DNA of 8,059 nt from IMG/VR virus record IMGVR_UViG_2778261541_000003. One strand, written 5' to 3'. Shown here piece after piece: positions 2,388-6,118 of the stretch. The translations under genes and the position numbers were made by a program. How positions within the stretch are numbered: the first letter of the stretch is position 1; every line of letters starts with the position of its first letter. Under the pieces are notes generated by a model. The model was not told the origin of the DNA, ran no database searches, and worked only from the letters and a program-made list of their open reading frames with translations. Source of the DNA: a virus. Lineage: Duplodnaviria; Heunggongvirae; Uroviricota; Caudoviricetes.

Positions 2388-2418
2388 CGGGCGGCGGCAC
2401 AGGGATGTGCCTTTAAAT
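2157..2418. repeat. Inverted repeat copy A (~260 bp, ~97% identical to rc of 3882-4141)
   Basis: Direct comparison: 2157-2418 matches the reverse complement of 3882-4141 with a handful of substitutions (e.g. cagtctgattcat vs cagcctgattcac; atcaacgacaaggctggg vs atcagcgacaaagcagga). Covers the last ~77 codons of ant plus its terminator. Confidence 0.9.
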
Positions 2419-2422
2419 AATT
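2396..2422 (+). terminator. Intrinsic terminator downstream of ant
   Basis: Hairpin GGCACA-GGGA-TGTGCC (2396-2411) followed by TTTAAATAATT. Confidence 0.55.
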
Positions 2423-2533
2423 CTGTACAGATTGCAGACTGTGGGTGAATAGCGTACTATTACCTCAAGGGTAAGAAAGCATTTTTAATCTTCCCTTCAA
2501 AACGCGTCCTGTAGCCAAACATGGGAGGACGAA

Positions 2534-3166
2534 ATGAGAACAAATACAACAAGAAAAGCGATGCCATACATTATCCCAGAAGCAGATTTCGATAGAAAAC
2601 TGAACATGTCTGAGAAGAACACTAGTCACACCGAAAGCTACTTAGCGAAAGGTGTGGTTGATTTCGTTCTTCCGGGATTCACAACACCTTATGGTTATCG
2701 CCTTGTAAAATCTTGTAATGGCGATCATTACAGAATGATTACTACCAGCGATACTCCAGAAACGGTGTATGCGGTTAAGTTAATCTTTCGGGAAGATATC
2801 GTCGAAGCCAAAAGAACATGTACGCAGATCATGGTATGGCGTACGCCTAATGTTATTCATGACCGTGCTGTTCATGGTTTGCCTCAGATTTTTTTTCAGT
2901 TCTTCCTAGAGCAATATGCGATCGTTGTATCTGATGAGCAACAAACAATCGATGGGAGGAGATTCTGGGAAAGAATGATTTCTTGGGCTATAAACACCCC
3001 GGGATATAATGTATACGTTTCAGATGGCTCTGAAGAAGATAGACCTCTTAGCTTCATGACATCATGGGATGATTTCTATAGCCAGTGGGCTGATTTCTGT
3101 TGGGGCAGTGATAAAGATGTGCATACCCACAGACTACTGGTTATAAGCAAAGATAAACTGCATTAA
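2534..3166 (+). CDS. Hypothetical protein (210 aa), cassette gene, no recognisable family
   Basis: ATG at 2534 with GGGAGGA SD 5 nt upstream; stop TAA 3164-3166; visibly lower GC than the flanking ant genes. Convergent with the 3187-3630 gene, sharing a bidirectional terminator. Confidence 0.7.
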   Translation: MRTNTTRKAMPYIIPEADFDRKLNMSEKNTSHTESYLAKGVVDFVLPGFTTPYGYRLVKSCNGDHYRMITTSDTPETVYAVKLIFREDIVEAKRTCTQIMVWRTPNVIHDRAVHGLPQIFFQFFLEQYAIVVSDEQQTIDGRRFWERMISWAINTPGYNVYVSDGSEEDRPLSFMTSWDDFYSQWADFCWGSDKDVHTHRLLVISKDKLH

Positions 3167-3169
3167 TAG

Positions 3170-3188
3170 AAGCCCGCGGCGCGGGCTT
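3170..3188. terminator. Bidirectional hairpin terminator between convergent cassette genes
   Basis: AAGCCCGC-ggc-GCGGGCTT perfect 8-bp GC-rich stem at 3170-3188, followed by TTCTTCTTCTTC on the plus strand; overlaps the stop codon of the minus-strand gene. Confidence 0.55.
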
Positions 3189-3630
3189 ATTCTTCTTCTT
3201 CATCATTAAAAAGCGGATTGTTGTTTCCATCTGATGAAAGGAAAGGTATGTGTTCTCTTGAAAATCCAACAATGACAATTTCATTATCATTTTTTGCATA
3301 ATGAATGCATTCATTAGAATGCATTCCGCCAGGGTTGAAATTTAAGTTAATGGTATAATTCTTAAATGTGTTTGGATACCATGTTGGCCCACAATGATAA
3401 TGCCAATAATTCTCTTGCTCATAATTGTCTGAGCCGGGAATTTTATCATGGTTATCATCAACCCACGAGGGCTTGTTTTTTCCAACAAGCGCCCTTCCAT
3501 TGGCAACATCCTCTAAAAACCTTTGTATGATTTTTATTTCATCATCAGTAAGGAAAGGTCCGTCTACAGCGAAAGGGGTGTTGCTTTCCCCATGTAGAAA
3601 ACTATTAGATATTCTAATGTTAAACTTCAA
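3187..3630 (-). CDS. Hypothetical protein (147 aa) with acidic C-terminal tail, no recognisable family; possible toxin or effector partner of the upstream small ORF
   Basis: ORF track 3187..3630. Start is TTG (rc of 3628-3630) with AGGAG SD 6 nt upstream; no in-frame ATG until residue ~103. Ends ...NDEEEE. Contains YWHYHCGPTWYP. Confidence 0.65.
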   Translation of the reverse strand: MKFNIRISNSFLHGESNTPFAVDGPFLTDDEIKIIQRFLEDVANGRALVGKNKPSWVDDNHDKIPGSDNYEQENYWHYHCGPTWYPNTFKNYTINLNFNPGGMHSNECIHYAKNDNEIVIVGFSREHIPFLSSDGNNNPLFNDEEEE

Positions 3631-3650
3631 GGAAAACTCCTGATGTGCTT

Positions 3651-3818
3651 CTATTTGGAGCGAAATGCCGCCTTGAAGTCGCTAAAAGATGTTCCTGTCT
3701 GGTAAACCATATCCTTGTCGCGCTCTTTGCTTGCGCGACCAAGCATAACTTTTCCAATGACATCCCAGCATTGCTTGGCTTGTTCATTGTGCTGAGTACG
3801 ATTTTTCAACGCTGTCAT
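3651..3818 (-). CDS. Small hypothetical protein (55 aa), first gene of a two-gene minus-strand operon; not in the ORF track (below its length cut-off)
   Basis: Hand translation of minus strand from ATG at 3818..3816: MTALKNRTQHNEQAKQCWDVIGKVMLGRASKERDKDMVYQTGTSFSDFKAAFRSK, stop at 3651-3653. Strong AGGAGG SD (rc of 3825-3830) 6 nt upstream. Stop lies 20 nt before the SD/TTG of the next gene. Confidence 0.45.
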   Translation of the reverse strand: MTALKNRTQHNEQAKQCWDVIGKVMLGRASKERDKDMVYQTGTSFSDFKAAFRSK

Positions 3819-3874
3819 ATCGCGCCTCCTTTACCTTTAAGGTAATATTACGCGAATCTACATCACATCGCCAA
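3819..3874 (-). promoter_or_regulatory. Candidate sigma70 promoter with palindromic operator for the 3651-3818 / 3187-3630 operon
   Basis: Minus strand: -35 TTGGCG (rc of 3869-3874), 18-bp spacer, -10 TAATAT (rc of 3845-3850), immediately followed by perfect 15-bp palindrome TTACCTTTAAGGTAA (3831-3845) over the predicted start site, then AGGAGG. Confidence 0.5.
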
Positions 3875-3879
3875 TGATT

Positions 3880-3903
3880 ATTTTAAAGGCACATCCCTGT
3901 GCC
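3880..3903 (-). terminator. Intrinsic terminator downstream of the second antirepressor (inside the repeat)
   Basis: Hairpin at 3888-3903 (GGCACA-loop-TGTGCC) followed on the minus strand by TTTAAAATAAT. Confidence 0.5.
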
Positions 3904-4141
3904 GCCGCCCGTCAGAAGAATCCTGCTTTGTCGCTGATGTACTCCGCGTGCGTCTGGATATCACGCAGGCATTTGCTCACACCGACGATGTAGCAGAACA
4001 TGGTGGTCAGCTCCGCCGCCGCGCCCGATACATCGTGCCCGTCGTCCTGTAACTGGTTAAGCAGATTCATCAGCAGTGAGTTCTCCGTCAGGCCGAGAAC
4101 ACCAGACGGCGAGTGAATCAGGCTGCGGTAGCCGGGCTTCA
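3882..4141. repeat. Inverted repeat copy B (partner of 2157-2418)
   Basis: Reverse complement matches copy A; covers the last ~77 codons of the second antirepressor plus its terminator hairpin. Confidence 0.9.
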
Positions 4142-4568
4142 GTGGGGCGCTGTATTCTTTTTTGTCTTCCAGCTTGATCGCCTCCATAATGGCGGGCATG
4201 AAGCCTGACAAGACCTTCTCCACTTTTGTTTCTTGTTGTCTTAAACGTTTCTCGCATTCAATGAAGTAGCGTCGCACCTGGCGACCTTTTTCGTTACGCT
4301 CGACCATCGCCAGCTCTTTGGCTGTATCAAGGGTGAGGTGGTACTCTTTGCGGTTGTGGCCGCCTCTACCAGATGTTTGCTTTCCCAAATTGGAAAGCAA
4401 AATATAGTCTTGATTTTCAATGAATTCGTATTCTGATATGCGATTTGTAATCCATGCTGCAAACACCTTTTTAACACCTAAAAAAGCGTGCAGATCGCGG
4501 GCATTACAAAGTAGGGCTGTTTCGTTAGATATAGTGCCGTTGAATACGGGGATGAGTTGAGCGTTCAT
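3912..4568 (-). CDS. Phage antirepressor, second copy: different N-terminal domain (Bro-N/ORF6N/Rha-like, tentative) fused to the same C-terminal domain as Ant
   Basis: 218-aa ORF; ATG at 4568..4566 with GGAGA SD (rc of 4576-4580). N-terminal part (...[33 protein letters not shown]...[32 protein letters not shown]) resembles phage antirepressor N-terminal families. C-terminal 77 aa are ~97% identical to Ant (1443-2387). Confidence 0.88.
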
Positions 4569-4596: not shown

Positions 4597-4804
4597 CACC
4601 ACCGCTGAGACCAATCAGATGGTGGTGAACTGAACGGAGTTGGTCTTACCGGCCTAAGTGGTACCGGCGTCCTTTCGGACCCCCATTCAGCCCACCATAA
4701 TTCTGGCATGACTGTGCTATACGCATAAAAAAACCACGTCTGGCGTGGTATGCGCCACTTAGTAATCCGGGAGACCAATCCCGGCACTGGATTTTGCCAG
4801 TGCC
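4597..4804 (-). other. Hairpin-rich untranslated leader upstream of the second antirepressor
   Basis: H1 at 4597-4627: CACCACC-g-CTGA-[gaccaa]-TCAG-at-GGTGGTG. H4 at 4767-4784: CCGGGA-[gaccaa]-TCCCGG, same hexaloop. H5 at 4783-4804: GGCACTGG-attttg-CCAGTGCC. No convincing ORF in this ~400 bp (track ORF 4596..4928 rejected). Confidence 0.45.
4726..4749 (-). terminator. Candidate intrinsic terminator or attenuator within the leader (minus strand)
   Basis: Minus-strand RNA ACCACG-CCAGA-CGUGGU followed by UUUUUUU (plus-strand A-run 4727-4733). Sits ~160 nt upstream of the second antirepressor start codon. Confidence 0.45.
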
Positions 4805-4839: not shown

Positions 4840-4948
4840 TTACCGCAAAGGTAATGATAAACGCGAAGAAATATTAAAATCAACCGTATTTGGTTGATTG
4901 CGTTTAACGCTTGATCACCTGAAAGCAAGATATTACCTTTAAGGTAAT
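4840..4948. promoter_or_regulatory. Two palindromic TTACC-N5-GGTAA operator-like sites
   Basis: Site 1 TTACC-gcaaa-GGTAA at 4840-4854. Site 2 is a perfect 17-bp palindrome ATTACCTTTAAGGTAAT at 4932-4948. Centres are ~94 bp apart. Site 2 lies ~20 bp upstream of the start of ORF 4968-5696 and at the distal end of the minus-strand leader. Confidence 0.5.
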
Positions 4949-4967: not shown

Positions 4968-5696
4968 ATGGAAGTTTTCTGGATAGTTGTTGGTGTGGTT
5001 GCGGTGATTATTTACGTTATCAACCAGAACAAGACTAAGATCTCTGATCGTACGGTCGTTAATCATAACAAAACGATAAAGACCGAAGATGGGGAGATAA
5101 CGATTAATCGTACACAGGTGATAGAACACACCTCTACTCAGTTTCAAAAAACTGGAGGTAATGCGCCTAATATTTCCGCACCTCCTGCTTATGATAGTGC
5201 GGTAATCCAGACATATTATAAACAGCAGGAGTTAGCAAAAGAGAGGCAACTGATTCAGCCAAAGCCGTTTACAGCTGAGCTTCCACCTGGAGTGTCAACG
5301 CGTCCGGCATATCATGGAAGATTCCCTGGTGATGACATATCGTCTCAGTCATCTAAAAAAGCACCTCAGGCAGTATCAGAGCCAGCAAGAATACCTTCTG
5401 TATCGCCGCCAAAAGAAGAATCAGCTAACAGAGTTTCAAGTGGTAGCAAGCAGTGCTTGCGATGCAGAATAAACCTACCATATGAAAAATTCAGGAAATC
5501 GTCAAAAAATCCAGATGGATTGACTAAGTGGTGTGCAAGGTGTCTCGATGGCCCAAAGAATACACGCCATATGAAGTGGTGCCCAATTTGTAATGTCCGC
5601 AGAAAACGAACAAGCTTTTACCCTAATAATCAAAATGCGGATGGCTTAATGGCATGGTGCAAAACGTGCTGGGACGAGCACAAAGCGAAACGATAG
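4968..5696 (+). CDS. Membrane-anchored protein with Pro/Ser-rich linker and C-terminal tandem CxxC-N20-WCxxC (zinc-ribbon-like) motifs; function unknown
   Basis: 242-aa ORF; GAGG 7 nt upstream of ATG. N-terminal TM helix MEVFWIVVGVVAVIIYVI followed by NQNKTK (positive-inside rule suggests a cytoplasmic C-domain). Two Cys motifs: CLRCRINLPYEKFRKSSKNPDGLTKWCARC and CPICNVRRKRTSFYPNNQNADGLMAWCKTC. Terminator follows. Confidence 0.75.
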   Translation: MEVFWIVVGVVAVIIYVINQNKTKISDRTVVNHNKTIKTEDGEITINRTQVIEHTSTQFQKTGGNAPNISAPPAYDSAVIQTYYKQQELAKERQLIQPKPFTAELPPGVSTRPAYHGRFPGDDISSQSSKKAPQAVSEPARIPSVSPPKEESANRVSSGSKQCLRCRINLPYEKFRKSSKNPDGLTKWCARCLDGPKNTRHMKWCPICNVRRKRTSFYPNNQNADGLMAWCKTCWDEHKAKR

Positions 5697-5720
5697 GCCG
5701 CTCTTGCGGCCTTTAAATTT
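5696..5720 (+). terminator. Intrinsic terminator after the Cys-rich membrane protein gene
   Basis: GGCCGC-TCTT-GCGGCC (5696-5711) followed by TTTAAATTT; stem overlaps the stop codon TAG 5694-5696. Confidence 0.6.
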
Positions 5721-5976
5721 ACCGGGTTTGTTTTCGTAATTGTTCGGCACAATAGTCGAGATGTGTTTGCAGATCCCGCATAGACATCTGTGAGCTGGTG
5801 ACGTAGTTAATCAGTGCAGTCAGTTCGGCAAGTGGGCCATCGACATTAAATCCATCCTTATCGAGATCCCGGAGTAATTTCATCAAGTGCGATCCCTCCA
5901 CCAGTGACCTGACGCCTCCCGGCGTGTGAATCCTTTCGGTAAATCCGTCTTCCAGTGGATAGTGATACTGCTGCAT
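5719..5976 (-). CDS. Small stand-alone antirepressor C-terminal-domain protein (85 aa), candidate SOS-inducible mini-antirepressor
   Basis: ORF track 5719..5994 starts at TTG; in-frame ATG at 5976..5974 with GGAGA SD 7 nt upstream. PLEDGFTERIHTPGGVRSLVEGSHLMKLLRDLDKDGFNVDGPLAELTALINYVTSSQMSMRDLQTHLDY aligns over its length with the shared C-terminal domain of the two larger antirepressors ([69 protein letters not shown]). LexA box 20 bp upstream. Confidence 0.8.
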   Translation of the reverse strand: MQQYHYPLEDGFTERIHTPGGVRSLVEGSHLMKLLRDLDKDGFNVDGPLAELTALINYVTSSQMSMRDLQTHLDYCAEQLRKQTR

Positions 5977-5995
5977 CTTATCTTCTCCATGCAAT

Positions 5996-6051: not shown

Positions 6052-6118
6052 ATCACCTGAAAGGTAATATCTGTTCGTATTTATGGGTTATCTATCCATA
6101 TATGGTTTTTAAGGTAAT
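6052..6118 (+). promoter_or_regulatory. Repeated motifs upstream of the tail-fibre gene (ATCACCTGAAAG plus two AAGGTAAT half-sites)
   Basis: ATCACCTGAAAG-GTAATAT at 6052-6069 (TCACC-tgaaa-GGTAA, imperfect palindrome) and TTTTTAAGGTAATAG at 6106-6120. Same motif family as 3831-3845, 4840-4854 and 4932-4948. Confidence 0.4.

Follow-up and report, generated by a model that had tools for sequence, protein, structure and literature searches.

The operon and its signals

This report concerns a two-gene operon within an 8,059-nucleotide (nt) stretch of viral DNA (IMG/VR record IMGVR_UViG_2778261541_000003, Caudoviricetes); the whole stretch is referred to as the window. The window is an immI-like accessory region of a Uetakevirus (epsilon15/phiV10-like) prophage of Escherichia coli, and it contains an Arc-family gene, a small Arc-like gene, an antirepressor (ant) gene of the P22_AR_N type, a further one of the AntA type (antA), and a tail-spike gene. 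The operon lies on the minus strand and encodes a protein of 55 amino acids (aa) followed by one of 147 aa, in the order promoter, palindrome, 55-aa gene, spacer, 147-aa gene and hairpin. These are the only two genes between promoter and terminator, and no gene for a helix-turn-helix (HTH) regulator lies inside the operon. The module, from about 3170 to 3950, recurs at 96–99.9% identity in 77 complete E. coli genomes and in the phages HEMP4 and phiv142-3. Its features are given below; the two promoter hexamers and the Shine-Dalgarno sites of both genes were read directly from the letters, and the genes were assigned from their open reading frames (ORFs) and PHROG matches, that of the 147-aa protein also from its predicted fold.

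3869-3874, minus strand: −35-like hexamer TTGGCG, 4/6 matches to the consensus
3845-3850, minus strand: −10-like hexamer TAATAT, 18-nt spacer to the −35
3831-3845: perfect 15-nt palindrome TTACCTTAAAGGTAA (TTACCTT-A-AAGGTAA, of the form TTACC-N5-GGTAA), adjoining the −10 and extending over the predicted start site
3825-3830, minus strand: Shine-Dalgarno site AGGAGG of the small gene, 6 nt from its ATG
3651-3818, minus strand: 55-aa gene with ATG start, PHROG 8607, predicted helical antitoxin-like partner
3637-3641, minus strand: Shine-Dalgarno site AGGAG for the large gene, 6 nt from the TTG and within the 20 nt that separate the two genes (3650-3631)
3187-3630, minus strand: 147-aa gene with TTG start, PHROG 5954, predicted RelE/ParE-fold toxin-like protein
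3170-3188: GC-rich hairpin AAGCCCGCGCCGCGGGCTT, a terminator common to the operon and the convergent 210-aa gene, and the left edge of the conserved module
3888-3903, minus strand: hairpin GGCACAgggaTGTGCC just past the antA stop and within an inverted repeat, weakly terminator-like, separating antA from the operon promoter

A sequence-only reading of this DNA had already named TTGGCG-N18-TAATAT, the palindrome, AGGAGG-ATG, the 20-nt spacing, AGGAG-TTG and an acidic tail of the larger protein, and all of these are present; the tail is the C-terminal NDEEEE. Two of its statements need to be toned down. The promoter was called strong, which was overstated: both hexamers together reach 8/12 of the consensus at an 18-nt spacing, below the threshold of 9/12 in our consensus scan, which therefore missed it, and judged by these letters it is a moderate sigma-70 promoter and not a strong one. 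In phiv142-3 a promoter-like −10 is kept in place as TACTAT, with the −35 and the spacer diverged. As to the GC-rich terminator, the hairpin itself holds, but in the window a T-run follows on the plus strand only, on the side of the convergent 210-aa gene, which is joined here right after the hairpin and uses it too; the operon strand has none. In other genomes TTTTTTG follows the same hairpin on the operon strand.

Conservation and co-inheritance of both genes

The 55-aa ORF was taken to be unannotated; RefSeq carries it as the hypothetical protein WP_000125783.1, and the 147-aa protein is likewise annotated as hypothetical. The PHROG families of both are of unknown function. Comparing E. coli with Serratia, substitutions at the three codon positions number 14/13/32 in the small gene and 44/27/93 in the large one. 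This excess at the third position between genera, together with the PHROG matches, shows that both ORFs are real genes and that both are under protein-level selection. The sequence-only reading would have been given up, in part, had the small ORF lacked conservation; it is conserved and shows the third-position excess, so that this objection falls away.

In Enterobacterales and Pasteurellaceae the homologues of the 147-aa protein fall into 36 clusters when grouped at 90% identity, and a profile search for the family returned 119 representative clusters at 50% identity from gamma-proteobacterial prophages and chromosomes. In four enterobacterial genera the start codon of the large gene is TTG or GTG. 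A homologous partner lies directly upstream at every inspected locus, in three bacterial orders (Enterobacterales, Pasteurellaceae, Aeromonas); at one ambiguous locus, L022, the large gene appears interrupted. The partners vary in size as follows.

Serratia: 57 aa
Pectobacterium: 56 aa
Erwinia persicina: 58 aa
Proteus: 62 aa
Aeromonas: 71 aa
Klebsiella: C-terminal half of a 102-aa protein
Pasteurellaceae (eight loci): 159-211 aa, with the same module of about 45 aa at the end

Conservation of the small protein throughout the family is limited to these C-terminal ~45 aa, and R28 is invariant in 13 paired sequences. The genomic surroundings of the pair differ between the hosts. In Serratia and Pectobacterium it lies in the antirepressor region of podovirus-like prophages, in Klebsiella in the nin region of lambdoid ones, and in Pasteurellaceae in a phage with a polyvalent MuF protein; in Erwinia persicina (L009-L011, 3793-4441) a stand-alone chromosomal pair of 58 aa and 146 aa is placed between the housekeeping genes accA and mtnA with no phage genes nearby. 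The Erwinia persicina pair has no TTACC-N5-GGTAA; an inverted repeat upstream of it, GCGATG-N14-CATCGC, might be an operator of its own. In Klebsiella quasipneumoniae prophages (L006-L008, 3391-4486) the pair belongs to a three-gene unit that encodes a 95-aa protein, the partner of 102 aa and a homologue of the toxin with about 147-161 aa, with a single copy of TTACC-N5-GGTAA ahead of the unit.

The annotation of phiv142-3 suggested a disrupted toxin gene. This was rejected: the gene is intact, and the annotators had missed its TTG start. In the record concerned (MN187550.1; L001, 6017-6461) a spurious 52-aa Orf10 is called on the opposite strand in place of the 147-aa gene.

Predicted fold of the 147-aa protein

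The AlphaFold2 (AF2) model of the 147-aa protein reaches a predicted local distance difference test score (pLDDT) of 90.3 and a predicted template modeling score (pTM) of 0.85. Its elements follow in the order strand, short helix, long helix, and strands at residues 52-54, 75-79, 103-105, 108-113 and 117-124. The top Foldseek matches in the PDB were YafQ, RelK, YoeB, RelE, HP0894, HigB and ParE, with a best probability of 0.89. In the model the protein thus has the compact alpha/beta, microbial-RNase-like fold of the RelE/ParE superfamily (β1, two helices and an antiparallel sheet), and it is modeled as a RelE-fold core with about 60 extra residues, made up of two insertions, at about residues 55-74 and 83-105, and a conserved tail with an acidic end. 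The protein is nearer to the RNase branch than to ParE, and we regard it as improbable that the toxin would be a ParE-like gyrase poison and not an RNase.

A further hint comes from the conserved residues. Among 84 diverse members H77, H79 and H127 are invariant, and G50, N52, K53, S55, Y78, G81, H110, Y111 and F130 are conserved to at least 90%. These residues lie on the predicted β2 and β3 and just past the last strand, which are the positions of the catalytic residues in the RelE family. In YafQ the catalytic residues are H50, H63, H87 and F91 (PMC4652777), and three parallels to the motifs around them can be drawn.

YafQ K-D-H50-P: K-N-K53-P in the 147-aa family
YafQ H63-V-E-P-D-W: H79-C-G-P-T-W in the 147-aa family
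YafQ H87...F91: H127-I-P-F130 in the 147-aa family

The parallels are no more than suggestive. They were all that was kept of a possible relationship to YafQ, as homology at the level of the sequence was rejected on the alignment scores given further below. Membership in the YafO family, guessed from the motifs G-R-D, H-I-H-L and T-S-D-x-H-L-V-Y, was rejected as well: with the genuine K-12 YafO sequence and a profile of 14 YafO sequences, hhalign gave 0.7% and 3.3%, respectively, and the YafO profile PF13957 had no match in the 147-aa family.

No other sequence family took up the proteins either. None of the RelE-clan models (RelE/ParE, YafQ, YoeB, HigB, YafO, Gp49, BrnT) claims the 147-aa protein as a member, the BFVD viral structure library gave nothing significant, and PADLOC-DB 2.0, with E-values allowed up to 1, matched neither of the two proteins nor any of three neighbors. 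A literature search on the accessions, PHROG identifiers and sequence motifs of both proteins found no mention of them. The statement that neither protein belongs to a recognizable family is therefore borne out for the curated sequence families of Pfam, NCBIfam and PADLOC.

The 55-aa partner

The AF2 model of the 55-aa protein consists of helices at residues 2-42 and 45-53, without a DNA-binding fold, be it ribbon-helix-helix (RHH), HTH or other, and no match to it was found in Pfam, NCBIfam or PADLOC. As far as the model can tell, the protein therefore lacks the DNA-binding domain by which an antitoxin of a type II toxin-antitoxin (TA) system autoregulates its own operator.

The palindrome and the immunity repressor

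The sequence-only reading took the palindrome for the operon's own operator, as it would be in a classical autoregulated type II TA system in which the 55-aa protein, alone or with the toxin, represses transcription through it. We at first favored such a private operator, since in Serratia and Pectobacterium the palindrome is conserved ahead of the orthologous small gene, between flanks that cannot be aligned. Its position directly at the −10 speaks in the same direction, as does the Klebsiella case, where the sole copy within 8.4 kb of lambdoid prophage lies just upstream of the module. In addition, the N-terminal KxR..RN of the small protein is common to the three palindrome-bearing genera and differs in the palindrome-free Erwinia.

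The distribution of the motif argues otherwise. TTACC-N5-GGTAA occurs in 5 copies in the window (four of them perfect) compared to 0.2 expected, each of them intergenic and heading a different unit. Apart from the copy at the operon these are:

2460-2474: operator copy TTACCTCAAGGGTAA, found at the opposite cassette end, where the promoter of the 210-aa gene faces inward
4840-4854: operator copy heading the isrK/C4-antA transcription unit
4933-4947: operator copy upstream of the 242-aa gene, its 15-mer identical to 3831-3845
6053-6067: operator copy TCACCTGAAAGGTAA, which has a single mismatch and separates the 91-aa ORF from the tail-spike gene, with equivalents in TL-2011b and phiv142-3

In whole genomes the motif counts 14 copies in TL-2011b compared to 0.8 expected, and 15 compared to 0.5 in phiv142-3, which carries the module. 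In both phages paired copies occupy the intergenic region that the HTH_3 repressor gene shares with the divergent cro-like gene. Others, also paired, lie close by on the far side of the repressor gene, before the leftward operon (a P_L-like region), and more copies are found ahead of int, the terminase genes and other units. Moreover, in the phages TL-2011b and EC.W1-9, which are free of the module, the palindrome is kept at the same slot promoter before unrelated cassettes. A motif with copies at further promoters, ahead of unrelated cassettes and flanking a repressor gene is not a module-specific operator, and the small protein, with its plain predicted helices and a conservation confined to the C-terminal part, offers no candidate domain for binding it. 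The idea of a private operator was abandoned on these grounds, and autoregulation by the 55-aa protein is, in our judgment, very unlikely.

Instead, TTACC-N5-GGTAA is most likely the operator of the primary immunity repressor of phiV10/ZX5-type phages, and possibly of Cro, too. The flanking HTH_3 repressor is identical to ORF21 of ZX5, whose overexpression abolishes lytic transcription in the one experimental study found on it, which defines no operator (PMC9782041). This repressor of 194 aa (L029, 32364-32948; L028, 5306-5890) contains HTH_3 and YdaS-like HTH regions, and no match to a self-cleavage domain of the LexA/S24 type was found in it. A repressor without such a domain fits an induction by way of antirepressors, which may explain why there are several ant genes per phage. 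Binding of the palindrome by a host factor is less parsimonious than binding by the phage repressor, as the paired motif copies on both sides of the repressor gene favor the latter.

Since the palindrome is probably the operator of the immunity repressor, we predict repression of the operon in lysogens. The most economical reading of the motif positions would make it one of about ten units under control of the repressor. The motif probably outlines the regulon of this repressor, with int, the early left and right operons, the terminase region, the ant units, the accessory cassettes and the tail-spike side as its parts.

An exchangeable slot between two antirepressor genes

The operon is placed in a 1.46-kb cassette (2418-3881) that is bracketed by inverted repeats, formed where the two convergent ant genes have their 3' ends in common.

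2154-2417: left inverted-repeat arm, 264 bp, the 3' end of the P22_AR_N-type ant gene and about 30 nt
3882-4145: right inverted-repeat arm, 264 bp, the 3' end of antA and about 30 nt, 97% complementary to 2154-2417

Each repeat is followed on its inner side by an inward-pointing promoter with an operator. In E. coli ETEC4085 (L002) and UTAK-6 (L003) the stretch that separates the ant genes is found in opposite orientations. The ant gene beside the operon occurs with at least four types of N-terminal domain across genomes (P22_AR_N, BRO-N, AntA/AntB and ORF6N), so that the shared Ant C-terminal module appears to act as a recombination handle. On the left, past the hairpin, the neighbor of the operon is the 210-aa gene in the window and a 54-aa ORF elsewhere.

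Other phages hold other gene pairs in the slot. In TL-2011b (L026, 6188-6887) it contains a 59-aa gene together with a 181-aa YafO_toxin protein (PF13957, E 8e-6, above the gathering score), and in EC.W1-9 (L027, 6103-6904) a 108-aa gene together with a 167-aa DUF2335 membrane protein. The inversion, the differing neighbors and the differing pairs indicate that the module is portable and that its slot, invertible and prone to recombination, takes up other pairs of effector and partner as well.

RelE-superfamily TA modules in prophage accessory slots are frequent candidates for defense systems, and the interchangeable pairs with toxic effectors in this slot would suit a module that acts as an anti-phage abortive-infection defense in the lysogen. 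Such a role would be compatible with a TA-like mechanism. On the other hand, PADLOC gives no match, and the promoter lies under an apparent operator of the prophage repressor, which would keep expression low exactly where defense is needed. We consider a defense active in the lysogen unlikely.

Comparison with known systems

The 147-aa protein has no relationship detectable at the sequence level to the toxins of YafQ-DinJ, RelE-RelB, YoeB-YefM or HigB-HigA. With 147 aa it is also larger than toxins of the RelE/YoeB family, which have about 85-95 aa; its 55-aa partner lacks the RHH, Phd/YefM or HTH domain of their antitoxins, and the palindrome at its promoter is a phage-wide motif and not an antitoxin operator as in those systems. 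YafO of YafO-YafN is similar in so far as it is also a RelE-type, ribosome-dependent toxin (K-12 annotation) of more than the usual size. The pair gp45-gp44 of TL-2011b (59 and 181 aa) shares with our module the slot, the orientation, the promoter and the operator. However, gp44 reaches only 0.2% in hhalign against the 147-aa family, and the small partners are unrelated. By these comparisons the YafO pair of TL-2011b and the 147-aa module are analogous alleles of one slot that belong to separate families.

Phage P1 is a known case of an immunity regulon with dispersed operators. Its single repressor C1 acts on many scattered operators, among them the promoter of the immI operon c4-icd-ant, which is controlled by an antisense RNA. 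The phages considered here resemble P1 in the 14-15 dispersed palindromes heading many units and in a C4-type RNA with isrK before antA. They differ in the symmetric operator TTACC-N5-GGTAA, assigned here from motif positions, and in the candidate repressor, a 194-aa HTH_3 protein.

The closest precedent for the regulation is PaaR2-PaaA2-ParE2 of the cryptic prophage CP-933P in E. coli O157:H7, in which the antitoxin has no DNA-binding domain and transcription is embedded in a CI-like repressor network (PMC8630535). Both systems are prophage-borne, both combine a protein of the RelE/ParE superfamily with a short helical partner, and in neither does transcription appear to be controlled by the antitoxin. 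In contrast to our operon, which has no regulator gene of its own, the PaaR2 system encodes its regulator within the operon, and the regulator and the TA pair are expressed together in the immune state. The polarity is predicted to be opposite here, the promoter apparently being the target of a distant immunity repressor.

Proposed function

In terms of gene layout the operon has what is expected of a type II TA system: two adjacent and co-directional genes, the small partner first, 20 nt apart, and inherited together. As both are real and co-inherited genes, the TA-like reading is supported. The TA-like architecture put forward by the sequence-only reading is strengthened by a small gene that is conserved and co-inherited in three orders, by the predicted RelE/ParE fold, and by the YafO-family pair in the same slot of a related phage. 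We therefore propose that the operon represents an undescribed TA-like family of the RelE superfamily with a non-classical regulation tied to the phage repressor, and we give this proposal a probability of roughly 0.6. New TA families with a RelE fold turn up regularly.

According to this proposal the 147-aa protein would be a divergent member of the RelE/ParE superfamily, most similar in its modeled fold to the mRNA endonucleases RelE, YafQ, YoeB and HigB. It may cleave ribosome-bound mRNA by acid-base catalysis through H77, H79 and H127, aided by K53 and Y111. The 55-aa partner could bind and mask the toxin, by analogy to the C-terminal helices of RelB and DinJ or to PaaA2, and the weak TTG or GTG start of the large gene would hold the partner in excess. 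Transcription would start from the moderate sigma-70 promoter, whose −10 and +1 are covered by the dispersed operator, a putative site of the phiV10-type HTH repressor. In a stable lysogen the operon should then be repressed, and it would be switched on together with the antirepressor genes and the early units upon infection or when the repressor is inactivated. The position between two ant genes with 264-bp inverted repeats could let the cassette flip and be swapped. Candidates for the biological role are a shut-off of the host, conflict between phages, abortive infection, or simple selfish persistence.

Several observations weigh against the proposal. For the 147-aa protein, 31 members of its family (at E up to 10) and 20 distant relatives, no match to Pfam or NCBIfam was found, and profile searches of the PDB sequences with both profiles gave chance matches only and no toxin. 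The Foldseek E-values are weak, 0.1 or higher. Against YafQ the hhalign probability was 0.2%, and in the pairwise comparison shuffled sequences scored as well (z = 0.5); the mapping of catalytic residues therefore derives from the motif parallels and the positions in the secondary structure only. The model of the 55-aa protein, obtained from a shallow alignment, has a pLDDT of 71 and a pTM of 0.33. In Pasteurellaceae (L017-L024, about 2345-2999) the partner has a long N-terminal extension with a hydrophobic start resembling a signal or a membrane anchor, which is unusual for a cytoplasmic antitoxin. The protein that would bind the operator is assigned from the positions of the motif only, and toxicity, neutralization and RNA cleavage are predicted activities. 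Finally, a TA pair that is silent in the lysogen does not fit the usual logic of addiction or abortive infection.

An alternative is a protein with the RelE fold that does not arrest growth, e.g. an early phage factor that binds the ribosome or RNA and serves takeover or gene regulation, with the small protein as its cofactor, chaperone or timing inhibitor. The operator arrangement predicts early, derepressed expression and none in the lysogen, about 60 residues go beyond the minimal RelE core, the partner is fused to large N-terminal domains in Pasteurellaceae, and the libraries of defense and TA systems have no match. In spite of these arguments we hold this explanation to be doubtful.

The proposal of a TA-like family may also be extended to the slot as a whole, although only as a speculation. 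The slot of phiV10/epsilon15-like prophages could be an invertible exchange site, driven by recombination, that collects pairs of an effector and a neutralizer (RelE-fold, YafO-type, DUF2335), all of them under the operator of the prophage repressor, silent in the lysogen and firing when immunity collapses or upon a fresh infection. The RelE-like RNase would then be an early weapon of the phage, used for the shut-off of host translation or in conflict with co-resident phages or host defenses, with the small inhibitor setting its timing, and would serve neither for addiction nor for protection of the lysogen. We put this forward tentatively.

If toxicity and rescue prove true, an unnamed toxin family would be added to the RelE superfamily, along with a new family of short antitoxins. 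It would further mean that a TA pair has ceded its transcription to the immunity repressor of the prophage, with a polarity opposite to that of PaaR2-PaaA2-ParE2, and the role of phage-borne TA modules in induction as opposed to lysogeny would become directly testable. As by-products, an operator (TTACC-N5-GGTAA) and a regulon are proposed for the phiV10/ZX5-type repressor, and a slot flanked by inverted repeats is described in which accessory genes are shuffled between antirepressor genes.

Neighboring genes and RNAs in the window

On the minus strand, Rfam places a sar antisense RNA at 1374-1441, between the Arc-like gene and the first ant gene, as in immI of the P22 type, and a pair of isrK and C4 antisense RNAs (4618-4702, 4727-4803) upstream of antA, as in immI of the P1/P7 type. 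Two antirepressor control systems, each of its own type, are therefore found next to each other in the prophage.

A gene for a 210-aa protein (2534-3166, plus strand, PHROG 1349) with an inward-facing operator-bearing promoter of its own takes up the other half of the cassette; the protein has no match in Pfam, NCBIfam or PADLOC. As the gene is missing from other genomes that have the two-gene module, it appears to be independent of it. A 242-aa protein (4968-5696, plus strand, PHROG 6762) begins with a hydrophobic segment at the N-terminus and carries two zinc-ribbon-like repeats in its C-terminal part, which show weak matches to PHROGs of endonuclease VII, HNH and Lar-like proteins and to Pfam Stc1. 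The 91-aa ORF at 5719-5994 on the minus strand corresponds to the Ant C-terminal domain alone (PHROG 450/15539) and is, at the protein level, a third, free-standing copy of the module that makes up the inverted repeats.

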